Origin: Podarcis cretensis
Lineage: Eukaryota
Length of the DNA stretch: 64,000 nucleotides
NCBI GenBank assembly: GCA_951804945.1
Contig: OX638150.1
Span: 70,308,001-70,372,000 of the forward strand
Direction: 5' to 3'
The notes under the pieces were generated by a model. It was given only the letters and a program-made list of their open reading frames with translations. It was not told the DNA's origin and searched no databases. Positions 4,193 through 60,800 of this stretch are shown piece after piece. How positions within the stretch are numbered: the stretch's first letter is position 1; the number at the start of each line of letters is the position of its first letter. The position numbers and the translations under genes were made by a program.

Positions 4193-4505
4193 GTGTAGTA
4201 GTAGTAGTAGTAATAATAATAATAATTTATTATTATTTATATCCCACCCATCTGGCTGGGTTTCCCCATTCACTCTGGGTGGCTTCCAACAAAATATTAA
4301 AATACAACAGTCCGTCACATTAAAGGCTTCCCTAAACAGGGCTGCCTTCAGATGTCTTCTAAAAGTCTGGTAGATGTTTTTCTCTTTGATATCTGGTGGG
4401 TGGGCATTCCACAGGGCAGGTGCCACTACCGAGAAGGCCCTCTGCCTGGTTCCCTGTAACTTGGCTTCTTGCAGCGAGGGAACCACCAGAAGGCCCTTGC
4501 CGCTG
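4193..4505 (-). mobile_element. L2-clade LINE 3' end fragment with microsatellite tail
   Basis: Minus-strand translation VPSLQEAKLQGTRQRAFSVVAPALWN...FRRHLKAALF is a typical L2 ORF2 C-terminus. It ends in an (AAT)n/(AGT)n tract and has close copies at 8845-9087 and 46832-47226. Confidence 0.8.
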
Positions 4506-4569
4506 GACTTATCGGAACTGTCTATCTCCCTTCATGCATTCTGTGTTTACTTGTATTTTTATTTTATTA

Positions 4570-4963
4570 CCGTATTTTTCACACCATAGGACGCACCTTG
4601 TTTTAGAGGGGGAGAACAAGAAAAAAATCTCCCCCTCTCTGCTCAGCACCCCTTCAGCAAAGCGGCAGGAGAAACGGAGCCCCTTCCATTTCTCCTCCCG
4701 CTTGGCTGAAGGGGTGCTGCGCAGCTCTCCCTCTCTGCTGAAGCCAGGAGAGTCTTGATCTCTCAGCTTCAGCAAAAGGAACCCGAAGCCTTTGGAGCGC
4801 AGTACAAGTTCCCGCTGCACTCCAAAGGCTTCAGGCGGCTCCCTCTGCGCTTTGGAGGCTTTGCGTTGCTATCGCTGAAGCCAAGGAGCCTGCACTCACT
4901 CCACATATTTCCCCTTAATTTTTGGAGGGGGAAAAAGTGTGTCCTATAGAGCAGAAAATACGG
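4570..4963. mobile_element. Tc1/mariner-superfamily MITE (same TIR family as 1851-2119, opposite orientation)
   Basis: CCGTATTTTTCACACCATAGGACGCAC ... GTGTGTCCTATAGAGCAGAAAATACGG, with TA flanks at 4568-69 and 4964-65. Confidence 0.85.
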
Positions 4964-4967
4964 TAAA

Positions 4968-14000: not shown

Positions 14001-17000
14001 TAGGCAACCACACACAATTACACAATAATTTGGATGTTTTGCATTGCAATCCCATGCACCCAGGTAAGTGTGTATGAGATGGCAGCCATAATGTATTTTG
14101 TTTTGCTCTCTTAATATATTTAGAGCTTGTTCACTGCCTGCATGTGGCGGGATCCCCAAAGAGCAGGGGTGTGTGAAGAAACTGTAGCCCTCCACATGTT
14201 GGACTCCAACCCACATCAGTCCCAGGCACATGACCAGTTGGGTTTGGGCTGATGGGCATTCTAGTCCAATAATCTCCAGAGGGCCACAGCTTTCCCATCT
14301 GTCTCATAAAGTCTGTCTTCTCTCACCACTGGTGAGTGTGCATGGGCAGGTGGAATGGACACTATGTGGAATGGGTAGATTTGCAGCCATATGGGGATCC
14401 CTTCATATGAGTAAGGTCATCTGGGATGTGTGTGACCATCTATGCAATGTAGTCTTTGTTTGCTTCATATACACCTTGGTTATTTTTTTCCTTCTCTCCT
14501 GTGACTTTTTAATACATAGTGTTTCATTTTATGTTTTTAGCATTGATTATATTGGGGAGGTGGGCTTGGAAAAAAATCTGTCTTATGTTTCCAAGGAAAA
14601 CTCTACAATTTTCTCCTTTTTGAGCTGATCTTTCCTGTCTGGCATTTCTAACAAATTAAGCCAAGCTAACCTGAATTTCTAGTCATGGATGAGAAGCAGA
14701 GTGTTATTTCTTTGGATGAGAATGAGGGAGTTTTTTGTTTTGGATTTTCCTTGCCTCTGTACTTGATTGACTTTATTTACTTGATTGACTTTATCCATGT
14801 TGCTGGCTCCTTGCTTAAATGCTACACGGGAGCAGCTGGAGCATCTCAGCGGAGCCAGCTGCAAGAACCTGAGTTAGTTTTATTGGTAGTACAGGCAAGA
14901 CCTTGTTGTATGTGGATAGCAGCGGGACAGTCTGTGTATTGGTTTTTAGTATGTGAATATCCTTTGGCAGGTGGGTGAGAGCGACATGACAGTAGTTTCT
15001 GGTCACACAAGCAGCTCAGGTCTCCTCCTGGAAGTGGGAGGGGTTCTTCCGGGGCTGCACAGTGGAGAAATGCAGTCAGCTTCAACTACGGTTCCTGCAT
15101 CTCCTGCTGCTTCAGGTAGGCCTATTCTGCTATTGTTGTGTTTTTCTCTCTTCTGCATTAGTATCCTAGAGTTGGAAGGGGCTTCAGAAGAAATCCACTG
15201 CTACAGTGTGTAATTTCTGGTCTGCCATTTGTGTTGAGAACAGCAGGGGGTTTGAGAGTCCTGTTTCAAATAATGTGAATAAATCAAGAACATATTCTAT
15301 GAAAGCTGAGACCTTGGAAGACCAAATATGTAATTTGCATGGCAAAGCCTTTAGTCAAAGCTTTGCTTGTATGTGTCGGGGCTTTGTGTGATGTTTGATC
15401 ATGTTACTTCGTGTTATGAATGTTATTGCCTTGATTCTCTTCCTTAAATCACTTTGTTCGCTTACTTCCCCTTAATCTCATGTTTAGCTTAATGTTCCTT
15501 TCCACTTCCTCCATTCTTTTGGTATGTTTGTTCTTGGTATGAGCTTTCGTGTGCATGGTATCTGAAGAAGCGTGCATGTACACAAAAGCTCATACCAAGA
15601 ACAAACTTAGTTGGTCTTTAAGGTGCTACTGGAAGGAATTTTTTAATGCACTTTTGTATGTATTTAACTGATAGCTTGAAACTTTTATCTGAGCCATAGT
15701 ATGTCCTTTTCCCTTGCTCCCCCTTTCCTCCCTCCTTCCCTATCTTTCCCCTGCCCTCATTGTTAAGCACCTAGCAGTAGGCTGGTGGTGGGGAACCTAA
15801 TTACATCCACAACCTCAGCAGTTAGCCCACTAGGTTGAGATCTACAGGTATACAGATTTAATAAATAATATTTTTTCCCTTGTTTTGACATCTTATGGCA
15901 TCAGGTGCAGGAAAGTTCAAGCAGGAAAAGTTTAATAATAATAATAAGAGGAGAAAAAGTGTGAATATATTCCTGAATCTTCCGTTGGAGCCGGGGTTTG
16001 AAGTTTGTCACATAATGTCCTACGACATCACCTAATTAACCCAAGGAGGCTCAGCCACTTTTGGATCCAGCTCTCCAGTGTGATCCAATTTCTCACCCCT
16101 TGTAGATGCAAAAGGATAATACAAACATAAAGATTGGTGCCAAGTGCAGCACAAAGTACCCTGAGAATCTCAACTTTTTTTAAAAAAGTAGTTTTCTGGC
16201 CCATTTTAAAACAATGTTAAAAGTGTAATTCCCGAGGAAAATGCAGGTGTTGGGGAAGTGATGTATTCTATACTGGTTGCAGAATTCACCTTCTCTTGGT
16301 CCAAATATTTCCAGAGCACTGTTAACATGGTGCATATACAGGCTTGGCTTCAGAGTTCTGCATCAGACTTTGTCTGCTCCAGCTCTGCTACATGACATAA
16401 GATCTTGATTGATGCCGAATTGCCTTCCTAGCTTGGTCCTCCTCCTCCTTTTTTAAAAAAGATCATTCTCGCAATGATAAACCTTATGAGGAAAAAAATT
16501 TGGGCTCTAAGTCTGCTAAACACTCCGGATTCAGCAGAAGACTTGTGTTGAGCTTCCATGAAAGGCCTTTTATACTTTACTAGCTCCCATGGCTCCAGAA
16601 TCCTGCTATCCCTTGGGCATTGTTGCTCAGCCCAAACTTTGCGGACTCCCTTCCTTCCCCTATCCGATTTCATCTATACCAAAATATTGTGAATTATGCA
16701 CACCTTTAAATACTGAAAATTGAATTTAGGTTTTGCAAATAAAGGGAAAGCTATGAAAACCTCCTATGATTTGTTCAGTGTACGAAAATGTTGTTTTGCC
16801 CCAAATTTGGATTTTTTCTAGTGGTATAAAATGCTGCCCTTCCTCTTTTAAAAGCACACAGTGATCCTTGCTTGTATATGCTCCTGAGCCCTGCTAAGTG
16901 AGTCCCAGGACAGCTCTCTGTGGTCCGTTTTGTGACTTGTGTCGGCGTGTGCAACCCTGGTGGGCATGAGCAGGTCAAGAGCCCAAAGATTGCTTGCTCT

Positions 17001-20000
17001 GTAGTATTCTGTAGCTTCTTAGCTAATGTGCTTTCCCCCTTCTTCACACTTTTGTTAGGTGCTCCTACACTTTCCCGCCTTTTAGAAGCTGGTCCAGCGC
17101 AATTCACCACATCGCTTGCTTCCTTTTCTGCTGTTGCCAGTGAACCTCCAGGCAAACTCCTGCCTCCCCCTGTAGAGTCCGTGTCTCAGGCAACTCTAGT
17201 CATGGTGCCCACGCTACAAGCACCAGCTGCTGTGCCACCCGCTGCAACTCCCGAAAGTGTAGCGACAGGTGCGTCCTTGCACTCGTATGCCCGTCCATGC
17301 CTTGCAGAAGACTTTCCCTCTTGGGTTCGGTAGAAGGTCAATGTGGATGCGGGCTGTGGGTGTCTCTAAAATCTGTAGCCGGGTGGTTGATTTTGGGATT
17401 CATTGTGCCAGAGGCCCAGTGTTGTTGAGAAGAGTCCCCCTTGTGTTTCAGGCAGGGTGCAGGAACTGATAAGGAAAGATGATCTGGGGTGAAGTTAGTG
17501 AGAGGGATAGAGCTAGACTCCGATGCTAAGAGATGGCTCTTGCTCTGACTCTTATAATTTGGGAGGGTGGGGGAAATAGGGGCCATCAGCCTGCATGTGC
17601 CTTTATTTGGGGGCTGTAGAATGTGTTTTGATTTTCTTGATCTGACCCATGCTGCTGGTTGCTGCAGCTGCCAGGCTTTCACTTGACTTGTCACTCTTGT
17701 CCAGTGAGTCAGCCCAACACCTGTGTTTCCATGGAGGCAGTGCCTGATCCTCACACTGTGACAGTGTCAATGGACAGCAGTGAGATTTCCATGATCATTG
17801 ATTCCATCAAGAAAGATTGCCTGGGCTCTGGGGCATCTGGTGCTGTAGGGACTTCCAAAGACCACAGCATGGATGGGAAGGAAGACCTAGATCTGGCTGA
17901 GAAGATGGACATTGCAGTTTCCTACACAGGGGAAGAACTGGACTTCGAGACTGTTGGGGACATCATAGCTATCATTGAGGACAAGGTAAAATTATCTAGA
18001 GGCTTGGTCATGCCTCTCATATCACATGAAACCATAGTTAAAATAAACTTCATTTGTTTTAAACAAGGGTTAAACCTTGCCAGGTTCAGGTGACACTACA
18101 GGGTATACCCTGGCTCAGCACAACTGGAGAGTTATGAGGCACCCACAATTTTAGCAGTGTGTAGTAGCATGCTGCTCGTTCATATTGTTTAAATTACTGT
18201 TTTAATGCGACACGTGAACTAGACCTCTACTCCCTCCCTGTGTTTGGCACCCTAGCCTGTTTAATAGATGGGATAGTGCAAGGGCTTTCTTTACATCTCC
18301 ATTGTTCTCATGGCCTCTGATTGTTGCCTGTATCGCTGTTGGTAAAGGTGGACGACCATTCTGAAGTCCTGGATGTAGCAGCAGTAGAGGCTTTCTGCGA
18401 TGAGATTGAGGATCCTCAGTCACTGACCGACCCCTGGGAGCACCCACTCCAACGAGAGCACCCAATCCAACAGGAGCACGAGAAGCAGAGTCAGATCCCC
18501 CCAATGGCTGTGACTGTAAAGCAGGAGAGACCAGACTGTGAGGAATCGGAGGCTAAGGGGATCAGAGATCTGATGAGCATTGGGGATCTGGGAACAGAAA
18601 TAAAGACGGAACCTTCTGAGCAGGGACAGATTCATCTGAGCCCTGAGGAAGCTTCAGCACTAGCAACCAGAACAAGTGAAGCCCCTGAAGATGAAGAGAC
18701 ACGGGTTGCTGGTCTGGAGTGCTCTGAAATGGAGATGGAATCATCAAAGGTTGAAATGGATCATGGCACAATGAAGACAGAGGTAAATCGATGAAGAGGC
18801 TTCTTGGATATAACATGAATGGGGAATCAGTTGATAGATAAGGTATGGGAGGAGAGAGGGAGGCCCCTAGCTTGAAGCTGTTTTTCAGACCTATGCTTAG
18901 TGCACAACAACAAGCAAAGTTGTTTGTTAGCCAAACTGACTTGACAAACGAACTGTATTCACTCTCTGAAATCTGTGCTTGGGCATTCTTAGATTTACCC
19001 CAAATAAAAATCTGGCATGTATAGATTATGCAAATTGCTGAAATTGGGGCAGGGGTTATGGGTATTCTTGTTTTGGTAGCCAGAAGGGAGTGGCAGTGAG
19101 TACTGAATCCCCGTCCCCAGTCCCTCGGGAAGGTTCTTCAACTATCCCTGTCACTTGGAAGACATTACCCACCATGTATATTGTGCAGTCGCCCTTTCTT
19201 TATCATTGAAATCTGGATTCACAGTTAGCTGAACACTTCATTCTCCAATTCTTTGTACTCGTGGGGCTACAGCATATACACAGTTTTAGCCATATGTTAG
19301 ATCCTTGGGGAGCCACTTGCTCAGGTATGCAGAGCTTTGCTGTGGATGCAGCTGTTGCGTTGTTCAATTGCTGTCTGCCTTTAGAGTCCTGATGGTATAA
19401 AATATGACTTAATGCTGAGTGGTGTAGGACGCTGGTCCTGTTGCTCATGTTAGGCCATTCTTTTCTTTCTAGCTTCCCCCTGATGATGATACTTCCTCCC
19501 CACATGCTCCAAGTGCAAGCGAAGATTCCTCACAAGCAGATCTTCACCACAAATATGAGCTTTCAGGTAACCGGACTGGCTTGGTGGGGAAGGGGCAGTA
19601 GTTGTGACACTGCTAGGGAGGGAGGCTGGTATCTGTGACTGTCTGAAATTATGGAGTAATTTTTTTTCCCTTTCCCCGCTCCCAGAATCAATGAAGGAAG
19701 AAGCCCAAGCTCTTTTTGAGAACCAACTGAAGGTATTTTATTTACCCTCAGATTTCTTGACTTACATGCAGAATGAAAGTAGTTGTCAGCTGTTTGCATC
19801 TGAGGCCATAGGTGGAGAATGCCAGAATTAATTTAGAGTGTGATCCCAATATATACCAGGTTCTCAAAAATTACAGACAAAAAGGAAAAGTTGAATTAAT
19901 CTTTCTGCAGGCAGAGATCCAGGCCTCCCTTGTAGCTATGCTATTGTGTGTTAATATTTATTCCTATCCTTTTTTTTCTGGCCAAAGACCCTCAAAAGAA

Positions 20001-29982: not shown

Positions 29983-30168
29983 AGGAACATTGGAAGCTGC
30001 CTTGTACCATTCTAGCCAATTAGTCCACCTAGATCAGTACAGTCTGCGTTGATTGGCAGTGGCTCTTAAGGGTTTCAGGCAAAGGACATTCCTACCCGTA
30101 CTTGGAGATACCAGGGTTTGATCCTGGTCCCTTCTGCAGGCAAAGCAGGTGCTCTGCCATTGAGCCAC
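29983..30168 (-). mobile_element. tRNA-derived SINE (Squam3-like)
   Basis: Minus strand GTGGCTCAATGGCAGAGCACCTGCTTTGCCTGCAGAAGGGACCAGGATCAAACCCTGG (A/B-box head) plus the family body. Confidence 0.7.
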
Positions 30169-30481
30169 ATCTGGGTTGCCCTGTTCCCAATCCCCACTGC
30201 TAGCAAACCTGGTGATATAACCCAAGGCTTCAGTAACCTACTCCTGGCTCACCATTTGGATTGCTATGGGACTTGGCAGATGTGCAGTGCCACATAGACA
30301 ATTAGAAGCTAGGGATAATTTTTGGTTAAAGTTCTTTCAAGTCACAGCTGAGAGCATTACCACAATAGATTTCAGGGTTTGAACTTGGCTCCTTTACTAC
30401 CTGCTCAAACACCTGATCGGATCTGAAGCTAGCATGTGAGCAAGTGACAAACCCTCTTCCCATCTCGTGTACCTCTTGTAG

Positions 30482-45200: not shown

Positions 45201-48200
45201 ATTGGTAACGTGGGCTGTGTAACGGAATAGGGTCTTGTCTGCTTGCTGAGGGTGATCCCTCGTACAGATGTGAAGCCTGAAGCCACATATTCCTGTTCCC
45301 AGATCTGAACTGGATCAATGTTCAAGATGCTACTGAGGCCTGGAAACTGCTGAAACTGGGCAGGAGAAATCAGAGCGTTGCCAGCACCCACATGAACCAG
45401 CATTCTAGCCGCAGGTCTGTAACAGCGCCATAATTTTATTTATTAGCGGGTGGGGTGAAAGTGCATGTCTCAAAAATGGCAAAACATGTCTTTCGCACAA
45501 GAAAACAAAACCCATGGAGGCAGGAGGGCAAGTGTGTGTCTATGAGATAGGGAATGGGGGCGACAATCTGAGCCCAAGCTACTGGTTTTCATTACTTTTT
45601 GCTCTTTGCAGTCACAGCATTTTCTCCATTCGCATTCTGCACCTCCAGGAAAGCAGCAGTGGAATGGAGCCAAAAATCAGCGAGTAAGTCAAAGTTTTTG
45701 CATGCAGTGAAGGGCAGAATTATGAGTTTCCCTGTCAGTTGGCTGAAGGGCAATCTCATTTAAGGGTAGGGGAGTTCAGAAGGGCTAATGGGGTGTGTGG
45801 GAGAGAGTCCTCACCCCCCAGTCACAATGGGCACTTCTCAGACAGACGCCCACTGTATGTGTCAGTGTAAAGCTTTCAGGGGCTTTTCCAGTATCCCTGC
45901 AATGTGCCAGACCTGGAATGAAAATCTCCTATAATTAGTCCCCCGTTTTGCTTACCTGAAGCAGAGCAACCTAAATCTTCCATAGCACGGAATTAACAGG
46001 TTTTAGTTGGGTGTATTTGGCAGTGGTTGAAATATCTGGTGTGCAGGATTTCTAACCTGAAGAATGCAACACTTGGGTCTAGTAGGATTAGACTTCCTGT
46101 ATCCCGATACTGACACCACCCTCCCTCCTCCCCAGGATGTCCCTCTGTGACCTGGCCGGCTCAGAGCGCTGCAAAGAACAGAGAGTTGGGGACCGCCTGA
46201 AAGAGGCAAATAACATCAACACCTCCTTGCACACGCTGGGGCGTTGCCTCACTTTGCTGCGCCAGAACCAGCAGACCAGGTAAAGCTCTTCCTAGCTCTC
46301 AGTCCGACGGCTCCTCATAGCTCTGACTTGAACCCAGCAAGGAGCGCTTCCTGTAGGATGTCCGCTCCAACTTGAGATGTTGCTGGTTGTGTGTAGGGTT
46401 TGTCGAATTTGATTCCCAGCAGGTGGGGTGCCGGCTATGGTTGCTGCTTTGCTGCTCCATTTCTGGAGCTTAAATCCTCTTCCTGTATCCTTAACAGGCT
46501 GAAGCAGAGTGTGGTTCCCTTCCGGGACAGCAAGCTCACCCGTGTGTTCCAAGGCTTCTTCACAGGACGTGGGCAGTCCTGTATGATTGTTAATATCAAC
46601 CCGTGTGCTTCATCGTACTACGAGACTCTTCACGTGGCTAAGTTTTCAGCTATTGCTAGTCAGGTGAGACACAAAGTTGTTGAAAGTGAAACTAGGTGCC
46701 TGCAAGGTTCCATAAATGTTGGCTGAACTGTCTCTCTTCTCCCCTCCCCATGGTGCACCCCAAAGTGTGCTTGTTACACTTGTACTCTCTCTCCTACACC
46801 TCTTACGTATTTCCCCATTTTCTTTCCTTTAATGATGATGATAATAATTTATTATTTATACCCCACCCATCTGGCTGGGTTTTCCCCAACTCCCAACAGA
46901 ATATTAAAAACATGATAAAACTTCAAACATTAAAAGCTTCCCTAAAACAGAGCTGCCTTCAGATGTCTTCTAAAAGTTGTTGTTTATTTTCTTGACATCT
47001 GAAGGGAGGGCATTCCACAGGCGGGCACCACTACCAAGAAGGCCCTCTGCCTGGTTCCCTGTAACCTCACTTCTCGCAGGGAGGGAACTGCTAGAAGGCC
47101 CTCAGTGCTAGACGTCAGTATCCAGGCTGAACGATGGGGGTGGAGATGCTCCTTCAGGTATACTGAGCCGAGGCCGTTCAGGGCTTTAAAGGTCAATACC
47201 AGCACTCAGAATTGTGCTCAGAAATGTACCTATTTATTTGTATTTATTGCATTTGTTTACTGCCCTTCGCCTGTAGATCTCAAGGCTGTCCACAACATAA
47301 AAACGCAAAACACATAATAAAAACAAGAATGGAAACAAACTAATAAGCCCCCAGACCCCAGCCTCTCTTCTCCAGTATCCTCTCCACACCTTATCTTGGC
47401 AACTTTTGGCTAAGTTCAGCAGCACCTGCAATCCCCTCTCTGAAGGACCCTTGGGTGCTGGTGTGCTATGTAGCACAGCTGGTTGGCTGCAAGAGAGCGG
47501 AGAAACGGGCAAGATTGGGGAATATGGTGTATCTCAATCCTTGCCAGGGGAGAAACAGACTTTCTACAGTATGAGGAAGGACAGATAGCTGGTTGTCCTT
47601 TTAGGGAGGGCTAGATGTGGCTTATTAACCTCCAGGCATGGACGTCAACTGGGGCAGGAGAATTTCCAACAATGTGTTAAACTGCCTAGGTTAAACATAG
47701 GGCTGTGGGGCATAGGTGGGAAAGCAAGGCCTTAGCCTTGGCCCTGGGATTCTCCCTAGGCCACACACCCCTGTGCTATCCTCAGGTGCATTTGCCTGGC
47801 TGGGATGTGCCCATTGCTCTTTGGAATATGTCAACAGCAACACTTTGTATGCCTTCCAGATCCTACAAGCTCCTACAAAGCTCCTGTCGATTCAGTCTCT
47901 CATCAAGGAGCACAGCCTCCGGGGGAAGAAGATCCCTGCAGAAGTACTGTATCAAGAAGCTGAATCGGACGAAGAGAGCGAGGATGAAATGGATGTGACC
48001 ACATATGACAAAGAGGCAAGTGCTCGTTTGTCTGTCGCTCACTGAGAAAGTCTCCCATTGGCAGAGTCCCTTGGTAGACTGGAGCAGTCAGAAAACCTCT
48101 TATGGACCCAGCCAAGAATAAACCGTGAAGTGTCAACTGAGGTTCAAGAATTCTGTGTCCTCACGCAGGAAAGAATGAAAAGCTGTCTGATTCAATGATA

Positions 48201-51200
48201 GCCAGTTACCGCTAGGCCCCCAAACCTCCTTTGGATACTTATTTGCCCATTAAAAATTGAGTAGCTGTGGTAATGCTTGGATCTCTGGGGCAATTCCTCA
48301 TCTTGGCTGTTCTGGAAAACATGGGACTCAGCTACATTAGTAAAAAACCTGCGTTTTAAATGCGTTATAAACATGCAACACCAGATGGCACTGGACAGCA
48401 CAAAACTTTTCTATGAGATTTTACATACAGGGTTTTTAAAATTTTTGTTGAATGGTTGAATTTATGACTTACAGCGTTTTATTCCTGTGTGTAGATCCAC
48501 CCCAGTTGTCATGTTCCTTTCCTCTCTTCCTTCAGGACCTGTTGCGTGTGGTTGAAGCTGTGCGAGACCTTCTGCTGAAAGAGCGGCAGGAGAAGTTTCA
48601 GCTGGAAATGCGTCTCCGCGATGAGATCTGCAATGAGATGATGGATCTCCTACAGAAGAAGGAACAGTGGACCAGGTACTGTTGGTGGCAAAGGGCTGTG
48701 GAGGCATGTCTGCTCCTCTCCAGGATTGGGCCCTGGCATTCCATCCCACATCTTGTCTGTTCTTGATATGACTCTTTCCCTGCCCCCCTCCTTTCACCTT
48801 CCTCTCTGCAGTGAGCATGTGGACATCCAAAAGGAGATGCTGGAGGACGTTTATGAGGAGAAACTGAACAGTCTGAAGGAGTCACTTACGGACTACTATC
48901 AGGAGAAGATTGAGGTGCGTGGGGTGAAAAAGCTGTGGGAAGGAGGTGCTGGAGGGTTTCCTGAGGGCAGGACACTGCAGTTCCAAACCTTAGCACTGAC
49001 CTGAAGCAAGGCACCCAGTTTTATTGGCATCTGCAAAACTGCAGGGCCTCATGACATCTTTTAAAAGATTTAACAAATTTATAATGGCATACGTGTCATC
49101 AAACATGCGCTTTAAGTCCATGAAAGCTTATGCCAGGGACACCCCAACGTTTTTGGAACCGGGGCACATTTGAAAATCTCAGAAACTCATGGGCACTAAT
49201 CAAAAGTCATTTTGCATAAAGAAAAAAACACCTGCCAGTTCTCAGAACCCCCAAAACACCTACGCCATGCTCCCCAAAACAAATTGAAGACAGGCTAAAG
49301 CATGCCATACACCCCAAAATAAGGCAACCCCCACAAAAAGCCCTTTAAAAAGACAATTGAAGCAATTCAGGAAGAGCAAAGGGTGTTTGGGGTGCTCAGT
49401 GAGGGTGTCAGAGGGTTCCATGGTCGGAAACCATGTCTGTCTCTGGGCAAGCAGGAGTGACCTGTGCACAGTTCAGGAACATTTTCATATAACTGGAGAA
49501 TGCTGGGGGTGTGGGGAGAGAAAAAAGCCTTTCCATATGTGCGTGGAACAGATCTGATCTGTGAAGAGGCTATCTCCCAAACAGCCTACTGAAGGCTTAT
49601 AAATAAATAAGCAAGAGGTTTGTGTGTGTTGCCACCTAAAACCCTTGGAGGAGTGAACTACAAATGTGATTTGATAGGTTCTGTATGCAGGCACATTCAT
49701 GGAATCCTTTGCACACTTGGCACTGAAACTTTTGGCTCTGCCATGGATTTCTGGGTGCATGAGAGTCTGCCCAAATGAGAATCTCACAACCCTGCAGGAC
49801 AGGGATGGCAACCCATGGCCCTTCCAGATGTTGTTGGGCTCCAATTCTCCAGGGGTGATGGAAGCTGTGGTCCAGTAACAACAGGAGAGTAGTTGCCAGT
49901 TCCCCATTCCTACTACAGGAGATTCTGGGGAAGTTTGATCAGCTTATCTTCTGCCGCTGCTGTTCATTCTCATCTCAAGTTGGCAGGCTGCACCTTCCCA
50001 AACAGAGCCCTTCCTGTAATTTGTCTTGTTTTCCTCCCTCAGAGTCAGGATGAAAAGATAAAAGAGCTGCAGGATGCCTTGCAAGAAGCAAAACGGCAAC
50101 AGCAGCTCCAAGAGAGAAAGGAGGCAGATCCGGAGCAGACTCCTCGCAAATCCAAACGACTGGCAGCAGCAATGCCTGCCCAGAATCAGGAATTGCTGCA
50201 GACGAAAGCCAAGTTAGAGCAGTGTCAAGCAGAGCTGCAAAGAACTGCAGAAGGTGAGGCGTTCTCCCCCTTGTAGTCGCATGGGCTTCAAGCAGGTGGT
50301 TGTCAAGAGATCAGACTGCGCAGCATAAGTCTAGTGAACTGCAAGCTGACCTAGCATTTGGGAACCTTGGCTTCTGTGAGTGAGCGGCCATGAAGTGTTA
50401 AAGCACACCTAGGATATCTGCCTATTATTAGTCTGGGACCCCTGCTCCTCCATCTTTATCTCTGAAAAATGGTTGCACATTGCAAGAAGTACAAGGAATG
50501 GAGACTTAATATTAAATACAGTGGTACCTCGGGTTACATACGCTTCAGGTTACAGACTCTGCTAACCCAGAAATAGTACCTCGGGTTAAGAACTTTGCTT
50601 CAGGATGAGAACAGAAATTGTGCTCTGGTGGCACAGCGGCAGCGGGAGGCCCCATTAGCTAAAGTGGTGCTTCAGGTTAAGAACAGTTTCAGCTTAAGAA
50701 CGGACCTCCGGAATGAATTAAGTATGTAACCAGAGGTACCACTGTCCTTTTTTAATATGGCAGGTTCCCACCTGACAGAGGCCAAAATTAGAGGGGGGGG
50801 GGAGAGAATCCAAATAATTGATTTAAGGCCATTTTTGTTTAATTTAAATGCCCTACCAAAATTATGCACTTTGATCAAATTATAATTTTTTTTGAGCATG
50901 TTTCTTTGCAAGACAATTGAAATACTTGAGTTCGTAGCCCTGAAATAGCAAGGTCTGGGGTGGTGAAAGCCAAAGAAGGGGGATAAAGTCCCTTTGACTA
51001 TTAGGATCCCACCCAGTCGTGATCCTTCAAATGCTCCCCCTGCCCCACAAACATGAGGTGTAGAGACATAATGCAGAGACGAACCTGGAAAATATACAGT
51101 AGTACCTCAGGTTACATACGCTTCAGGTTACAGACTCCGCTAACCCAGAAATAGTGCTTCAGGTTAAGAACTTTGCTTCAGGATGAGAACAGAAATCGTG

Positions 51201-53256
51201 CTCTGGTGGCACAGTGGCAGCAGGAGGCCCCATTAGCTAAAGTGGTGCTTCAGGTTAAGAACAGTTTCAAGTTAAGTACGGACCTCCGGAACAAATTAAA
51301 TACTTAACCTGAGGTACCACTGTAGTTCATTTCAATGTTTAGTGCCCCTAGTCTAGCAGTATATTTTCTAAATCTTCAGCGTTTCCCATTGTAGGGTAAA
51401 CTATTTTGCTCTCCTCTGGCCTGGGCAGACTTCCAAACTGCATTATTGCTATAGGACATGGCTCTGTAGCAGAAGGAAGGGGATTAAAGCAATGCACAAC
51501 TTCTCTAAAAATAGCATTGTCAGGGTTCAAATCTGCTTTGAAACATTGCTCCTTAAACTGAGTGTGGAAAAAGACCTGGGTAGCCTGGCAGTTCTTGGGT
51601 AGTATATTCAGCATTGCACATTTAAGAATTCAGCTCTTGTATTGAGGACTGGCAAAAATTATTTTAACGGTTGGGCTAAATTGCAGTGATCTGTGGTTTG
51701 TCCTTAGAGTTGCGTAAACACCAGAAGATGCTGGAGCCGCCACTTTCCTCAAAGCCCATCACAACAAATGTGGACCGGAAGCTGGAAGAAGGCCAAAAGG
51801 TAACTGCCAGACCTTCCTTTCCTGGCATCTGCCAACCTCCTTCCTTTACCCTGGGCTTGAATGGCAATGTCTCTGAAACCTTCATCTGCTGCCAATGGGT
51901 GCATAACTTCTTTTTCTCCCCAACCACAACTTGCCACTGTATGTAGTCCAGTCTTCCTTAAGGGGCTGGATGCTGCCTTGTGCTTAACGGTCCTTCCCTC
52001 TCTCAGAATGTAAGGATGCTGAGATCTGAACTGCAGAAACTTGGGGAGTCCCTCCAGTCAGCCGAAAGAGCATGTTGCCACAGCACAGGAGCCGGGAAAC
52101 TGCGTGAAGCTCTCTCTAAGTGTGACAACATCCTGGCGAAGCAGGTAGGTGAAGGAGTCTCCTAAATTTCAGCAGCTTACAGGGGGCATGCATGCTCTGC
52201 TACACAAGATTGGTTTTGTCCATTTTAGTCAGTTTACATTGGTGTCTATAGACTGAACCATAAAAATTTCAGATCCAGCAGCACAACACACACACACACG
52301 TATATCCAAGGTGACCTTTGATTTAATGGTGGAAATCCTATGAAATAAATAGATAAATCCTTAGCGTCCTTAAGGTTCTGTGCCTTGATCCATTTTTATC
52401 TTGTAAACTGCTCTGAGAACTTCGGATGGAGTGTGGTGTATAAATTAAATACATTATTGTTGTTGTTGTTACTATTATTATTTATTTGTGCCAAGATTGT
52501 GCTTGAAAGTGCCAGATCTGATATTTATGTTTTGGTCCATGGAGACAGATGCTACTGGCTGGGGAGAGGTGGGGGAAATCCCATATAAAAACATTGTGCC
52601 AGTTTTAAAAAAAACATTAAACCATTTTCTGGAGTAGTTTGTTTGTGCTCACAACCACACTGCATTACAGAACACTAGTAGCCATAGAATCAACCCCTCC
52701 TGCCTCAGTTGTCATAGACCAGTCCACAGGATTTGGTGGCTGGGTGAAGCAGTCCCAGAGGGGCCTTGTTAAGATCCAGGCACCTGTCATCTTCATCTCT
52801 AATGTTTCTGAGTCCATAAGCATTTTCAGAAGTCTTCACATTCAGCGTAATTGGCTGAAATGATTGGCACCTGTCTTACAAGAGGGGAGGCTCCATCTTC
52901 ATAAAACTGAATTTCTCCGCTGGCTCTTCCAGGACCAGACTTTGGCTGAGCTGCAGAACAACATGATGCTGGTGAAGATGGATTTGCGGAAGAAAGCAAC
53001 CTGTATTGCAGAGCAATTTCACACTGTGCAGAAGCTCCAAGCAGCACCAACCTCTTGCAGCAAAAAACGGTTTTGTGCCAACAATGAAAATGTGCAGCCC
53101 AGAAGTCAACCTCCCTTCAAGAAGCCTTTCTTGCACAATTTCCTGACTTGCACAACAGCCATGCCTGCTGTAGCAATAGAGACCCCCTATAGTAGTATCC
53201 TACGTGCCCGTGGCTCTCCAACATCTAAATCCATGGCTTTTGGCAAAAAACACTGA
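42228..53256 (+). CDS. KIF20A: Kinesin-6 family protein KIF20A (MKLP2), ~892 aa
   Basis: Coding exons 42228-42368, 42653-42739, 43163-43282, 43602-43740, 43832-44019, 44117-44261, 44951-45151, 45303-45414, 45612-45683, 46136-46279, 46498-46663, 47860-48015 (GC donor), 48536-48675, 48812-48914, 50043-50253, 51708-51799, 52007-52144, 52933-53256 (2679 nt, in frame). P-loop GVTNSGKT, switch I NQHSSRSH, switch II DLAGSE, VPFRDSKLT, and tail AERACCHSTGAGKLR...FGKKH*. AATAAA at 53514-53519. Confidence 0.96.
46832..47226 (-). mobile_element. L2-clade LINE 3' end fragment
   Basis: VLTFKALNGLGSVYLKEHL...LLAVPSLREVRLQGTRQRAF on the minus strand, with the same 3' UTR as 4193-4505. Confidence 0.82.
50519..50744. 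mobile_element. Tigger/pogo-like MITE, copy 1
   Basis: TA-CAGTGGTACCTCGGGTTACATAC ... GTATGTAACCAGAGGTACCACTG TIRs, 226 bp. Confidence 0.88.
51097..51322. mobile_element. Tigger/pogo-like MITE, copy 2
   Basis: TA-CAGTAGTACCTCAGGTTA ... TAACCTGAGGTACCACTG-TA, 226 bp, collinear with copy 1. Confidence 0.88.
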
Positions 53257-53888
53257 CTTTTTGGGGGTTGCAGTGTACCTGGGCACAAGCAACCAGTTGA
53301 TAACTTTAATATTTTCCTTCATGTTAATGTGTTGAGGCCTGAGCTAACTAAATCTTTGGCTTCCCAAAGATGGTTACTTACTATGCATGCCCTCTGTTTC
53401 AGGCCAGCTGCTACTCCAGTGTATATGGAACCTGGATTCATATTCCTTATGTTTATCACCTCCAATAGCTTATGTTATGCATGTGAAATGTTTATTATCT
53501 ATGTTAACTGTATAATAAATGTACCTTGTGTCTTCTAAAACCTCATGTCTATGTGAACAAGCTCTAATAAGGGAAACCTTTCCTGCATTTGTTTTTAAGT
53601 TTCTTCTAGTTGCCTGGTGGAGTAGGCTCCACAACCACGAGGCCATAACTGTTAAGTTTTCCCTTTTCTTGCAAGGAATCCTATTCGGAACAAGGGAAAC
53701 GTTGACAGCTATGCACGAGGCTGATTTTTGTGTCCCTCTGGTAGCCCAGGCATGAGACTTCAATGGTTAATTTGCACATGATCCCTAATACAGAAAGTAT
53801 TCAAAATGGAACAGATTTTAATGGAATGGAAGATTTTAATGGAACAGGCAATGTATCCTACACAGTTGTGCATTTCTGGACAAAGGTA

Positions 53889-55449
53889 CTGTATTTTTCG
53901 CCCTATAGGACGCACTTTTTCCCTCCAAAATCTTTTTTTTTTTTAAATAATTTTTATTAACTGGCCAATCACATCAAATTAAATCACATCATATAAATTC
54001 CGAATTACAAAGCCAAATTTTTAAATTTTGTTGGGGGAACCCATACTTCAAGATCCAAAGGGGAATTCAGATCATCTTCTTATTACTGCGTTAATGTCCA
54101 AATCAGTCCAAACAAAGTTCATAATTCTATCCAGTCTTATCTTGGTGTTGCCACATCATATCTTGTTCGTATAATTTCTCTTTTTCCTTTACGATCTCTT
54201 CTGTTAGTCTCCTTAAGCCGATAGCAAGTGTAATAATCCTGTGTGGATTTCCCATTCCTCCACTAAGTCCAGATGGTTTCCATATATCTCCTTCGTAGAT
54301 AACATCACTTTTTCCATCGTAAATTTTGGCATTTGTCGCTCTTAAGTCCCACCGAGGAGTTGATTCACGATATGTAAACAACTCTATTTCTCTCTTTCTC
54401 CTCCCAGACCCAAGAGCTCCCAGAATGCCTCACAAAATGGCGAACGGCATTTTTTCCTGATTGCGTCACTCCAAAACTCTTAGCTTTCCAGCTTCATCTT
54501 GAAACATTGCTTTGGATCGAAAGTTTATCTCCACACAGCCTTAAATCCACAGCTTAAGTCCTTAATTTCTGACTCATTAGGGGAGGGGGATTCTTGTTAA
54601 GTCACATAAAAAAGTAGAGGCAGGTTTTTCCCCCCCCTCCCCCCTCAGTCATTACCGTATCTTGACGTTCTTCTCGTATTTTATTGTTGTCTTGTTATCA
54701 GAGATCTCTCCTGTCAGCAGTATTTACTCCCCTTTTTCCTTGATGTATGTGCAATTAATCATGTCCAAATTATTTCTTTTAAAGATCATTGCAACCAGCG
54801 GCGCAAATCGGGGACGGCGTCGAGGAGTGCCGAAAATCCCACAGGAGGGCTTTGTGCCTAGTGCCCCCACCCCCACAAATTCAGGGGTGGTATAGGGCAC
54901 AGCAGGCAAGGGCCGTCCCCCCCATAATCCTGGGGGGGGGTTAAGGAGGCTAATTACCCCCATCATAGCCTCCAAATTACCTCGTGTGGGTCGGAGAGAT
55001 GTTATTGTCAGCCATCTTCCGATGCGCCACCTAGTGGCCCCCTTTCCCCTCCAAAATTGAAGGCGAAATCTGTGTGCGTCCTATGGGGCAAATACAGGCT
55101 TTCGCTGAAGCTTGGAGAGCGAGAGGGGTTGGTGCGCACCGACCCCTCTCGCTCTCCAGGCTTCAGGAAGCTATCAGCAAGCCTGCGGAGCCCGTGGGAG
55201 TTCCCGCAGGGCTCCCCAGGCTGCGGATAGCAGCCTGCCGCCCGGCGTGAGAGGCGCCCTGAAGCAGAGCGCCCCTCGCGCTGGGCAGACATCAGCCAGC
55301 CCCACCAGCTCGGGGGACAGCATGGAGGCGGAGCGCCGCCATACCGCTGTTCCCCGACCTGGTTTTGGGGGGGGGGGAAATAAAGGGGGGAATTTTCTTT
55401 TATTTCCCCCCAAAAAACCTAGGTGCGTCCTATGGGACGAAAAATACGG
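53889..55449. mobile_element. Tc1/mariner-superfamily MITE interrupted by a nested 1.1 kb insertion
   Basis: TA-CTGTATTTTTCGCCCTATAGGACGCAC ... GTGCGTCCTATGGGACGAAAAATACGG-TA. Removing 53932-55057 restores collinearity with the copy at 1851-2119. Confidence 0.88.
53932..55046 (-). mobile_element. Non-autonomous polyadenylated non-LTR retro-insert with an L1-like 5' end
   Basis: TSD CCCTCCAAAAT (53921-53931 / 55047-55057). Minus-strand AATAAA (53953-53958) then A12 (53933-53944). 5' end reads GGGGCCACTAGGTGGCGCATCGGAAGATGGC. No long ORF. Confidence 0.8.
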
Positions 55450-57811
55450 TAATCTAGCTCCTTGGGAGTGGGTAGAAGAACAGACTATATTTTCCAATAG
55501 TACTACTCTTAGTATAAATAAAAGTACTTAACTGATGCTATATTGGATTCCCTTAAGACAATTATGAGCAGTGCAAACTATTCCAAACCAACAAGACAGA
55601 TAATAACTACATCTGTTACAATCTATGGGCATAAATCCTGACAAAGTTCCAAGTCTGGCCTGCTAATTCCGGTTCTTGACTGAGGGCACAAATAGAAAGG
55701 ACTCCTATGTTTTATTAAGGTTGTAGTTTTAAATCATGGCTATAATTCTACAGCAGTGGTGAGAAACCTGTTGCAGGCATCACATACTGACATCAGGGCA
55801 AGATGTCTACTCTAAAAATACCAGGTTTAAACTGATTCTTAGAGGTGGTAAAGTATTGTAATTTTCCTATATTTAGTCTTCTACAAAGCTGAAACCAAGG
55901 CATATACTATTAGATACTGAAAACATACAGAGTAGAGCAAATTATGTGTGCTACATTTTCTAAAAGCACTCACCAGGAAATTACCCTAGAGACTTAACTG
56001 TTACTTAGGCAGTGGCACAGCAGGTGTGGTTCTGGGGGGTCAATAATTAAAATTATATATGATTTACACCAAACCTCTATACAATTTTGACAACCTATAA
56101 TACCCTAAATAGGCAGAATCCTTATTTACATGGTGTCTGGGTTTTGTTTTGCATATATTGCAAGTATGGTGCAGATTGGGATGCAGTGGATTAATAACTG
56201 CATTAACGAGAAAAATGTTAGCCTCCATTATCATTGGTTTTCAGTGCTAAGCAAGGCTATCTAGGATATAAGCTAAGTTAGTACAGTGCTGGCAGAGCTG
56301 GACCAAGACATTTTGCTGCCTAAGGCCAAGGTACTTTGGCACACAAGACAGAAAATCCCACAACTGCTTTTCCCCAGGAGTAAAAATACATTAAAAATAA
56401 ATGTAGTATTTACAGCCCTTTCATGGCACCTAAAATCAGCCGTGACACTGCCCAATGGTAGGGGTGGCCTTGAATGTTTGAATTTGACAAGACAGATCTG
56501 GGCCCAAGTTTGTAGCTCACTGACCATGAATCAGTCTCTCGTAGTCTACCCACCACCACCACCAATTGTGATGATAAAATGAGGGCTCTGTATGAACCCC
56601 TGCCTGCAAGGATCTCCAGATAAGATAAAAATTAACAAAATGTGAGTGCTCTAGCCCCAACATCTGTGCTGTACAACAGAAGTCAAAGTTCTGTGTTTTA
56701 CTAACATAAATGACAAGAATGTGTAGTAAAAACAATTTAATAGTGGAAGCAGAATTCAAGCTTGCTTGATACCATTACCTGCTCAACTGTAGACAAGTCA
56801 AGTTTGCATACCTGAATTCTCATGTCAGCTGAAGAAATTCATACCATTGTTATTCTTTACCACCTAGTTTTTTCTGCTAAGTCACATTGAGGATAGATCA
56901 CAACCATTATTTTATGTCATAGGATCATATTCAACAAAACTGCATCCCTGCTAGGATACTAGTTTACAACACCCCAGCTTCTAGTTCAAAGAACTAAGCA
57001 ATAGGTTTTTTTTCTACTGAACAGTTATGTTGTGTTCCTGGGCAACAAAAATGTGTAGATGAGTTTTGCCACTCAAATAGTGGTGGATACTTCTAGAGCT
57101 CGTATATATGGAAAAGCTATGTCAACACTGCACTCTTATCTTAATGAACACATAGAAGTCCCACCACTTCATTGTTACCAGGCTACACAACAGCATCGGC
57201 TGCTGCATTAGTAAGAGAAAATATGGGATATGAATTACTACATTTTTCACCCATGGACTGCCGTTTGTCTAGCACAAATGTAGACACCTTTGCTCTCTCC
57301 ACTGGCTCCTTTTACCAGCTAGATAATCTAACACAGCGATTTTGCTTGAAAAGTAACTAAAACCAAAAGGACAAGGGACCAAGTGATGCAAGGACATTCT
57401 TTCCATCATGAAATAAGAACGAGGCAGCATCATTTCTCCTCCAAAAGATGACACACTGGTAGCCAGCAAGACATTACGAAGGAATGCCATGAGCATGACA
57501 GGCAAAGAAGCAACTCCAGTTGATGTCAATGGAGGAAAGTGACCTTGGAATCCCTTCTTACACCAAGATGTCATGCTAGAAAGCAGAGGCATAACAGGAG
57601 TAGAATGGATTCAGTCTCTCACTATGAAATATGTTGCCACCAGCTTTTGATGCCCGCAATGTAACTATCTTCAACAATGAGTTATCAGCCCTTCTAGGAA
57701 GGCATCACTGGATACAGAACTCTCCTTAGAGAGGCAGCATTAGAAGGAAAAACCCAGGCTCCAGCCGGATTACAGTTGCAGTTCACATCAGCCCAGAGAG
57801 GTAGGCACACT

Positions 57812-60800
57812 TTAAGGTGTAATATTGGACAAGTTCAGGGGTGACACACGGCGTGTTGGAGTGTTATTGGCAGATAGTGAAGACGGAAGCAAGAAAGGTG
57901 TGGCAATCTCTGTGGATGAGGTCTCCCCTTGATTTCGTAACTGTAAGATTTGCCGCAAGAGGGCCTTCCCTTCTTCTCTTGTCTGGAAGAGAAATGAAGT
58001 TGCATGAGCAAAGAGCAAACACAGTGCAGTAACTAGAAAGGGGGCACATGGGTGTTCCTGTGCAAAGATCAGCCATTCTGAATTGCAATCAGACTTGTGG
58101 TTCAATGTCAGATCTAGCGAGCCTTTAGATACTGCAAATCCCATGATATATTTCTCCCTGAAGTGGCTACTCCAGCAAAATATTCACCAACTCTGGGGTG
58201 AGGAACCTCTGGCTCATGTGCCAAATTTGGCCTGCAAAACTGTTTTCTCTAAACCATGCCCACCTGTCCCATACCCAGTGTCCTATGTGACATCAGGTGT
58301 GGAGAAGGTAGAGACATGGCTTTGTCAACTGCACAACCAAGATTCTCTTTAAGAAAGCTGGCTGTCAAGCATTTGGGAAGTGCTGAACAATGAAACTTTG
58401 ACAGGTGAGGCAGGGCAACTTACCTGTCGATCATCTGATATCACAATGCCACCCACCTGTCAAAGTTGGCCCAATGGGGTGGGTAACATCTGGCCTGCTG
58501 TGCCAAAAGGATTCCACATGCCAAACAAACTCATCAACAGGATTCTAAATACTTTACTTCCTGTTCATGCTTTCTCTTTATCTATTTCAAGGGCAAGCTG
58601 CAGGCCATATAAAGCCCACTAAGAGGTTTTTGGGTGGCTTGCAAGCACATATCTGGACATTTTCATGTTTTATCCATGTAACTAGCAACACATTTCTTAC
58701 CAAGCAAAAACTAGCTACCTCCATTTCCACAAGGAATGAAAACTTTTTAGCAGATTTCCTTAGTTGCTTTTCACAAAGCTCTTGTCATGATCTGGTGTAT
58801 TATTGATTGGTTCTATTAGTAGAGGTAGATGGGCGAACACTCTGACAATCCTGAAGGATTTAGATTGTTGTTCTAGAAAAGGGTTGGGCTTTCAGCCTCT
58901 CTTTTAGGTTCTTTTAGTATGACTTAACACATGTGTGGCCTCAAACCATTATAGCCATACCCAAGAGTGGTCTCAGTGGTGGCACTGTGGGTGGAAGCAG
59001 GCATGGGACCCAGTGAAGAAGTCCACAGATGATGTGTTGGCTACTCACGTCATTGAATGCACAGCATTTCTGGGCACAGGCTGAGGCTTCATCCCAGAGT
59101 TTACACTTGAAATAATATTGAGCCAGGTAGCGGAAGGCAGTGCTTACTTCCAGGTGCTCCACTATCTCCTAGAATAGAACAAAGGTATTCATGGTTTGGT
59201 TCAGGGTAAATTCATTTCTTATATGAAGATTTAGTATTAACCTGAGAGAAACTGAGTATTTACAACTTTTTATTTAAAAAGTCCAATTTAAATACAATGT
59301 TTTTCTTTTTTAAAAAAACAACAAACACCTGTTTTTATCCACTCTGTATATCCTTCACTCTTTCATTCCCAAAATCATTTGGAACTGACTCACCCCACAA
59401 GAATAGATATCTTGTATGTATTTGATATAGCACTGAGCAGCTTGCTCCGATTCATTCAACTGTTCATGAAGCCTGGGAAAGAAAAAGCAAAAGCAAAAGT
59501 GTGTTCTTGCTTAAAGGATAAGACCACCACTATAACAGAAGAAGCTACCTCTTGTCCACTATAAGTATTCAGTATGTAGTTGATGGGATTATCCTAATAA
59601 CAAATTACATGCTTTGGAGTAAGCCTAGGTAGCCTATCAAATGTGAGCTGCATTTATGGGGGGAAAGACATTAAGCAATGTCTTAATCTCAGCGCCTGTC
59701 ACTCACAGGTATTTCCCAGGGGTCATTTTCATCAAGGTAGGCAAACATCCCATTTCCATACTGTAGCAATTTTAGTTTTATATTTATCTTGATATACATA
59801 ATAAAATACTTTTTATACTTAGTTTATGTGTAGCCATTTAATTATTGCCAGAACCTGTATGAATGCACATTGTGTGACTCACCAAGAACACATGTGGATA
59901 CCAAGAACTATGGAAAAACCACTAATAGTTATCCAGAATATTGCTGCCATAAAGGTCAAAGATAATCTGGAGTACTTCCCCTAAATAATTTCCTGGGATC
60001 ACAAGGACTAAGAGCTATGCAGAAAGACAGGAAACATCCACATCATAACGTCTGCAGACTAAGATTTCAGTCCAAAAGGCAGTGGTCAGATAAGGAGGTT
60101 TGGCCAATCTATCCAAGAAAAGCAATATAAAACTACTACTTACTTTGCTAGTTTCACCAGTGCCATTTTTTCCACATCTCCAACAGCATAGGCTCTCCAA
60201 TAACACTGTCAAGAAAAAAACAACAAATGCAAAAGTGTCTAGTCCAGAGGCAAAGGTGATATTGCCTACTATCCTGCCTAGCAGAGATGAATGAATAGTA
60301 TGAAGCATATCAGAAGTAACATAATGCAAGACTATAGGAGTGATAACTCCAATAAACCTAGCTCCAAGTTTTAGACAACATTTCCCTCTTTTTTTTCGAA
60401 CAGAGGATGAAGAAAAAAAGCCATCAGAAGATCTGATTGCTATTATTACATGGAAGAAAAGTGCAAACAGAATAAAAGCTCAGTTCTGGAAACTGCTCAA
60501 TTTTTAGCACTTTCCCCCAGTACCTATGTTCCAGCTACATAATCTACATTCACCAGTCCATTCTCAAGAGGCAATGAATGGACAGAGGCAATTCAATTGT
60601 TATGACAAAACAGCACAGCAGAAATACACTAACATTTCCTTTATCTGGTTCAGGATAATGCCCACTGCTGCTGCTCAAATGCAAATCCATGTCCCGCCCT
60701 ACCTTTTTGGCTTCCACTAGCTGATTCAATTTCTCGTAACATTCTCCAAGAGCTACCAGCATACGGGAATCATTGGGCCTGTGAAAAACATGAAACTATC

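Follow-up and report, generated by a model that had tools for sequence, protein, structure and literature searches.

A non-coding, multi-copy family of retroposons in lacertid lizards, likely a non-autonomous L1 derivative

Non-autonomous LINEs that arose through internal deletion have been described in the Bov-A, L1 and Vingi cases, and SVA, Sadhu and SINEU are counted among the unclassified retroposons that are either of Pol II type or promoter-less (PMC4494074). With regard to L1 itself, YY1 is critical for initiation in mammals, and non-mammalian genomes keep very few full-length copies, long inserts being purged (PMC5381506). Lizard clade-1 L1 elements start with GACTTCCGGTG-N8-ATGGCG and possess 5'UTRs of 792-1,465 nt with 39.5-49.7% GC and 3'UTRs of 194-570 nt with 22.5-40.2% GC (PMC5381506, table 2).

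The insert described here was found in a stretch of 64,000 nucleotides from Podarcis cretensis, the whole of which is hereafter called the window. Sequence inspection together with the departure points of other copies places the retroposon proper at 53932-55042 on the minus strand (1,111 nt, 43% GC). It interrupts a MITE which extends from 53889 to 55449 between TA dinucleotides, has arms of 29 nt, TA included, with 90% complementarity, and carries a 62-nt near-perfect palindrome in its right part (55105-55166). Three TA-flanked copies of this MITE with common ends are present in the window (1849-2121, 4568-4965 and 53887-55451); their internal lengths differ (about 270, 400 and 435 nt), and the other two are 78-87% identical to the host MITE over the aligned ends. 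A TA duplication, terminal inverted repeats and the lack of an ORF identify the host as a Tc1/mariner-type MITE, the superfamily label being presumed from the TA rule. The available text of PMC10058329 did not identify it further. Both uninterrupted copies continue across the insertion point, which confirms the clean splitting of the MITE claimed in an earlier note on this DNA.

An exact 11-mer of the target-site duplication (TSD) is found at 53921-53931 and again at 55047-55057, as had been reported; recurrence of an 11-mer 800-1500 nt downstream was observed at 11 of 8,915 sampled window positions. Because other copies depart from the window sequence directly after 55042, the duplication is better drawn as 14 nt on one side and 15 nt on the other, with the extra C inside a C-run, in line with the previous estimate of about 14 nt with one indel. 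On the minus strand the 3' end reads AATAAA, AATTATTT, A12 and a single extra G, while the 5' end opens with G5 followed by AAGATGGC at +25. The observation of the earlier note is thus confirmed. No terminal direct repeat, i.e. no LTR, was found in the retroposon, no tandem repeat or VNTR within the insert, and no further copy of it within the 64-kb window. The poly(A) tail and TSD, together with the lack of an LTR, identify a non-LTR retroposon inserted via target-primed reverse transcription (TPRT). The coordinates of the features are collected in Table 1.

Table 1. Features of the retroposon and of its host MITE (window positions; + and - denote the strand)
Feature	Coordinates	Strand	Remarks
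Host MITE, left part with terminal inverted repeat	53889..53931	+	TA duplication 53887-53888; other MITE copies start at 53887
TSD copy at retroposon 3' end	53918..53931	+	14 nt; site present once in uninterrupted MITE copies
Poly(A) tail, A12	53933..53944	-	followed by one non-A base (53932), G in element sense
AATAAA polyadenylation signal	53953..53958	-	8 nt ahead of tail
AT-rich 3' part	53945..54142	-	31% GC; composition like that of lizard L1 3'UTRs; blocks common to sister subfamilies
100-codon stop-free frame	54127..54429	-	judged non-gene: homologue not found
GC-rich head	54783..55042	-	59% GC; likely internal Pol II promoter; multi-hairpin fold from +53 to +205
Splice-donor-like site (predicted)	54976..54983	-	+60; sole sense-strand match to donor pattern
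YY1-type motif AAGATGGC	55011..55018	-	+25
CTCF-like motif (predicted)	55024..55037	-	+6; overlaps GGTGGCG and A-box-like string
TSD copy at retroposon 5' end	55043..55057	+	15 nt, one extra C
Host MITE, right part with terminal inverted repeat	55058..55449	+	TA at 55450-55451

The copy number of the element was estimated from public sequencing runs, 20 of 24 listed ones of which contain 26-84% of the sampled 31-mers of the insert (10 organisms, 11 studies). Contigs were mapped from 4 of these 20 runs, and the three large ones, X1, X7 and X9, each from a different organism, were used for depth, with single-copy flank baselines of 78, 91-109 and 18-19 respectively. All 20 bins from 53984 to 55043 were covered by contigs in the three runs. 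Summed insert depth relative to the single-copy flank reached 4,473-17,509x in X1, 86-8,090x in X7 and 100-7,167x in X9, values that are not copy numbers as such and that overlapping short contigs may inflate up to about 31-fold, a bound given by the word length. After 31-fold deflation the floor in X1 is 144-565, which implies at least about 140 copies of the retroposon in one organism. Three single X9 contigs with 0-1 differences from the window copy lie at 63-85x baseline and provide a firmer lower bound. As a rough calibration, the MITE (three copies in 64 kb) gives depth ratios of 13,500-18,000, which for a genome size of 1.5 Gb (PMC10214862) do not suggest a 31-fold inflation; consequently, thousands of copies of the retroposon are likely in organism A.

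The copies share one 5' end. In X7, 34 contigs and, in X9, 35 contigs depart right behind 55042 into long unrelated flanks (among the 24 of 632 loose ends listed, where X1 has no entry for this place), and this shared departure point fixes the 5' end of the retroposon and the start of the TSD. The main prediction of the earlier note, numerous copies that share a 5' end but differ in their flanks, was thus borne out in both runs, and at this end the element is a dispersed multi-copy family. In the flank consensuses of both X7 and X9 a run of 5-6 T ends 18 nt out and gives way to AG or AA, a pattern in keeping with an L1 endonuclease nick and a TSD near 15 nt. When the plurality consensus was taken from 35 random window flanks, the T-run pattern appeared in 1.3% of 5,000 trials (P = 0.013). 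The agreement of the flanks with their consensus was 0.42 in X7 and 0.40 in X9, and 0.40 was never reached in the 5,000 random trials, a comparison in which two extra G-run bases partly raise the agreement and in which X7 and X9 are not fully independent, as they may share orthologous insertions. These data concern 5' flanks, as consensuses, and together with the depth data cover the insert outside the masked 53931-53958. The flank consensus of these two runs would fit an L1-type choice of target; at the window locus itself the nicked strand reads AAAAT/TG, a target that suits L1 poorly.

Truncated L1 copies are expected to produce a pile-up of depth at the 3' end. Dividing the depth of the four bins at the 5' end by that of the four at the 3' end gave 0.68, 1.62 and 1.70, and hence no strong 3' pile-up was observed. 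The depth profile of X1 is flat, with a 3.9-fold range across the insert, and those of X7 and X9 vary 72- to 94-fold, with peaks in the head, at 54514-54566, at 54090-54142 and in the tail. Head depth is mostly high in all three runs, and the AT-rich 3' part holds depth peaks in X7 and X9. Internal loose ends, among the 24 of 632 listed, lead mostly into diverged versions of the retroposon sequence. From these patterns we infer collinear sister subfamilies, the window variant having expanded mainly in organism A. When compared with the X1 majority, the window copy deviates at 8 or more of 1,098 positions (0.7%; among 40 of 54 variant positions listed), one of the 8 being a 57:43 split, and on this divergence it is young. 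None of the runs listed with the insert is given as RNA. In run X12, whose RNA nature is a guess, contigs lie in 21 of the 30 bins, among them those of the head, and one contig ends near the tail; start, strand and level are unreadable from them.

The family is non-coding. Stops number 25, 15 and 24 in its three sense frames, and a family majority variant alters just one of these 64. The longest stop-free stretches measure 100-105 codons and the longest ATG-started sense ORF 80 aa, which corrects the short ORFs of 83-84 aa given previously. The least-stopped frame does not stand out significantly: it has 15 stops (P = 0.14), and its longest open stretch covers 105 codons (P = 0.047). Pfam searches with six read-through frames gave nothing credible, including no L1-family match and no ORF2 homology in any frame, and the same outcome was obtained when three sense frames were compared with PDB sequences, in agreement with the earlier statement that RT/EN motifs are missing. 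No homologue of the least-stopped frame was present among 1,770 candidates. Against 1.84 billion representatives, a protein set for which the full-length search covered a single sense frame of the three, the 100-codon frame gave four matches, one being another copy of the retroposon and three repeat-rich chance matches. Two related copies contain frames of 57 and 85 aa that stop sooner, one of them with a different upstream frame. An Atlas search likewise gave nothing credible, recognition being low and phage-like matches being treated as noise. No trace of ORF1p was detected by Pfam (six frames) or by homologue search (least-stopped and 100-codon frames).

The first 260 nt of the element, its head, fold with a z-score of -3.86, none of 200 shuffles being equally stable (local z -3.1 and -3.7), and among the six variants listed there is no covariation in this fold (one pair kept, one pair broken, four positions unpaired). 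The motifs of the head follow the order G5, GGTGGCG at +12, AAGATGGC at +25 and CTCTCC at +45. The CTCF-like 14-mer, scored on the core consensus, has two matches in the window against 0.04 expected in shuffles, and the +60 site was called with a presumed splice-donor pattern. GGTGGCG followed by ATGGC 9 nt later occurs once in the window, and the starts of the Anolis elements L1_AC1 and L1_AC3b and of zebrafish L1-6 also have GGTGGCG shortly ahead of ATGGC when compared by eye (supplement of PMC5381506). The Anolis clade-1 start GACTTCC is absent from the retroposon, which contains 29 CpG against an average of 56 (PMC5381506). This L1-head likeness consists of two short motifs seen by eye and could reflect convergent promoter grammar. 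In length and GC the element, 1,098 nt at 43%, is within the values of lizard clade-1 5'UTRs, and with its last 200 nt at 31% GC it would fit an L1 5'UTR joined to a 3'UTR.

Pol III initiates on A and B boxes, for which consensus patterns were used here, and is stopped by runs of T4-T6. No B box was found by pattern scan in the retroposon, and T4-T6 runs occur internally at +207, +430, +567 and +606, which argues against Pol III. An A-box-like string is present at +14; the earlier statement that tRNA A and B boxes are absent consequently stands for the B box and not for the A box. ARAGORN found no tRNA in the insert, and Rfam gave no match to tRNA, 5S, 7SL, snRNA or ribozymes in the insert (E <= 5) or the head (E <= 10).

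These observations bear unequally on the possible origins of the insert. A single retrocopy of a host mRNA or lncRNA, with which a TSD and a poly(A) tail by themselves would be compatible, is hardly credible, as this alternative of the earlier note is ruled out by depths hundreds to thousands of times the single-copy level, by the many flanks and by the subfamily structure. If the insert were an autonomous LINE, truncated at its 5' end and endowed with a 3'UTR of unusual length, this would explain why the X1 depth climbs, non-monotonically, from 556k to 1,371k over the last five bins, and some truncated or tail-sharing copies do exist. The fixed 5' end in dozens of contigs and the 5'/3' depth ratio of 0.68-1.70 nevertheless make such an origin very improbable, as do the promoter motifs and G-run of the head, the absence of ORF2 homology in all frames and the length of Anolis L1 3'UTRs, just 96-570 nt (PMC5381506). 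The fixed end, the depth ratio and the failure to find ORF2 homology thus uphold the earlier view that the insert is not a plain 3' fragment of a LINE. The choice of target could point to a different partner, namely a Tx1-clade element preferring Mariner MITEs as in crocodilian SINEU/Tx1-Mar: the window copy sits inside a Tc1/mariner-type MITE at a non-canonical L1 site, and SINEU is poly(A)-tailed, with 13-90% of its copies in Mariner-N4_AMi (PMC4494074). The at least 34 and at least 35 copies with unrelated flanks, many of these being other than the MITE, have an L1-like consensus, however, the head shows no U1 or U2 match in Rfam, and the MITE is so abundant (three copies in 64 kb) that a chance insertion is unsurprising, leaving a Tx1 partner improbable.

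An independent origin of the Sadhu or SVA kind deserves more weight, unlikely as it is. Here a host Pol II transcript with downstream YY1 and CTCF promoter motifs, from a lncRNA or a promoter-proximal unit and possibly with a decayed tRNA-like head, would have been mobilised by L1 through its poly(A) only. Neither an L1 parent nor an ORF remnant was found, the A-box-like string lies at +14, an ATG followed by the donor-like +60 site resembles a first exon, and the size and non-coding nature match Sadhu, of about 900 bp with TSDs of 7-16 bp (PMC2848041). On the other hand, the order of the head motifs agrees by eye with published L1 5' termini (PMC5381506), an A-rich body that ends AT-rich is what L1 composition would lead one to expect, and the head has no tRNA or other Rfam match. 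That the element belongs to a non-coding retroposon family moved by L1, whichever of the two origins applies, is highly probable. Within this, the best explanation is a multi-copy, protein-free lacertid retroposon family that is likely a non-autonomous L1 derivative with an L1-type Pol II promoter, moved in trans. The earlier note had likewise proposed a trans-mobilised non-autonomous Pol II retroposon with an L1 5' UTR-like head, a proposal supported by the common 5' end and the flank consensus.

For such an L1 derivative, the following course of events can be proposed. An L1 with a long 5'UTR would have been deprived of both its ORFs, whether through an internal deletion, through splicing or through premature polyadenylation, the promoter and the polyadenylated end remaining. 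YY1 at +25 would position the start at the G-run, so that every full-length copy would keep its own promoter. The ORF2p of a resident L1 would then bind the 1.1-kb poly(A) RNA, nick T-rich DNA and prime on the tail, giving rise to TSDs of about 15 bp. Owing to its shortness the RNA would mostly be copied in full, and promoter-bearing copies could accumulate, unlike those of the 5'-truncated parent. Subfamilies would have expanded at different times, with the window variant dominant in organism A and diverged collinear ones in organisms D and F, and the window copy would have inserted at a non-canonical site in a MITE older than itself. No parent L1 was found, and among the 24 of 632 loose ends listed none leads on into sequence of ORF1 or ORF2. 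When contigs from metagenomes and viruses were scanned by pattern, the matches numbered 0, 0 and 2, the latter being 20-24 nt long and due to chance. Titles and abstract openings of the open-access literature contained no description of such a lacertid family. Since Podarcis genomes were annotated with a Repbase library and contain 12% unclassified repeats (PMC10214862), its consensus may already be on record, labelled as L1 or as unknown. Taken together, the family is real and probably undescribed, its general class being already known in other organisms.

Wall lizards might, tentatively, harbour still-active, thousands-strong, promoter-only L1 parasites that spread an intact CTCF-plus-YY1 Pol II module through the genome in species-specific bursts. 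Should this be true, it would break the rule of very few full-length L1 promoters in non-mammalian genomes. Rodent B2 SINEs spread CTCF sites, and the lizard family would be a reptile parallel if this reading holds. As an L1 derivative without ORFs and 1.1 kb long, the family would in any case evade the purging limit and scatter full-length L1-type promoters by the hundreds to thousands. Each such copy would bring a predicted CTCF-like and a predicted YY1-like site, and these copies could change transcription starts and chromatin boundaries between close species. Among vertebrates the family would be an unusual parasite of L1, being no Pol III SINE and, unlike HAL1, not coding for ORF1. The presence or absence of its young, lineage-skewed copies would serve as a useful marker in wall lizards. 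The surprise is moderate, given that the general class is known already.

With regard to the genomic setting, KIF20A, whose last exon shares 98% identity with the gene in P. muralis and 91% with that of Lacerta agilis, ends at 53256, and CDC23 on the minus strand ends at 57812; the two genes are convergent and the insert therefore lies between them. The sole AATAAA-type signal between 53256 and 53900 is at 53514, and the insert is probably outside the KIF20A 3'UTR. The retroposon is co-oriented with CDC23 about 2.8 kb past its stop codon (53953-57812, minus strand), and its AATAAA could terminate CDC23 read-through transcripts, closer signals being present at 56741 and 55716. Single-copy contigs of X7 and X9 run from unique flank into the left repeat of the MITE and stop at 53910 and 53908, and the MITE at this locus is common to organisms D and F. 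Contig joints that skip the insert were considered as an empty allele and rejected, being best explained by paralogous MITE copies. The unique flank at 53719-53877 is partly without contig cover in X1 and is covered by one continuous single-copy contig in X7 and X9, for which a filter effect is possible.

Other repeats were noted in the window. Upstream of the MITE by 170 nt lies a small repeat with 22-nt inverted arms (53644-53713), single in the window. Its depth in three runs is 8,600-16,300x that of single-copy sequence, two of these runs show it with 44-48 different flanks, and it represents a roughly 80-nt high-copy hairpin MITE. Within the KIF20A span, 50516-50745 and 51094-51323 form a 230-nt direct duplication of 92% identity, 578 nt apart. 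A tRNA-like Rfam match (30103-30174, minus strand, 39 bits) followed by a SINE-like body is probably a tRNA-derived SINE and not a tRNA gene, as ARAGORN finds none. Another interspersed repeat is present in three copies of 78-82% identity (4211-4497, 8867-9087 and 46830-47102), whose translations presumably resemble a LINE 3' end.

Among known reptile retroposons, Squam1 and Squam3 of squamates and SINEU of crocodilians are likewise non-autonomous, and SINEU is also found in a Mariner element. Squam3 comprises 218-239 nt with a tRNA head, CORE and L2 tail (PMC7983390), and SINEU carries U1/U2 heads and is under 500 bp; no such heads were found in the retroposon, and identity with SINEU was rejected on the lack of a U1/U2 snRNA head in Rfam. 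A classic SINE was rejected as well, because the A-box-like string has no B box beside it, because T4-T6 runs occur four times and because neither ARAGORN nor Rfam gave a match. HAL1 is also a non-autonomous, L1-related element with poly(A) and TSD but encodes ORF1p (PMC5753468), of which no trace was detected here in six frames by Pfam or in two by homologue search, and this identity was accordingly rejected. SVA/LAVA of apes are similarly non-coding, of Pol II type and moved by L1, as proposed for the retroposon (PMC5753468); identity with them was rejected, since the insert lacks a VNTR, tandem repeats and composite Alu/ERV parts. SpIREs, too, are shortened L1-derived RNAs re-inserted via TPRT; they are described as dead ends with reduced promoter activity (PMC5860796), whereas the present family has been amplified.

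Bov-A (from Bov-B), Vingi derivatives, R2 SIDEs and TbRIME are equally non-coding, with a LINE-like 5' end, a polyadenylated 3' end and a TSD, and are moved in trans without being of Pol III type (PMC4494074, PMC3414825). As in Bov-A and the SIDEs there is no functional ORF2 (64 sense stops, no Pfam or PDB match). In contrast to this type, the apparent partner of the retroposon is L1, and a sharing of ends with a parent L1 is presumed, the likeness observed being one of motifs to Anolis and zebrafish L1 starts; the ribozyme and rDNA site of R2 SIDEs (PMC3414825) were not seen. Sadhu of Arabidopsis shares a size of about 1 kb, the non-coding nature, a conserved 5' motif, poly(A), TSDs of 7-16 bp and the lack of a small-RNA head; likened by its description, it is a plant family of about 16-21 full-length copies (PMC2848041), whereas in the lacertid family copies are far more numerous and the head resembles that of L1. 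By analogy, then, the retroposon would work like Bov-A, a SIDE or Sadhu.
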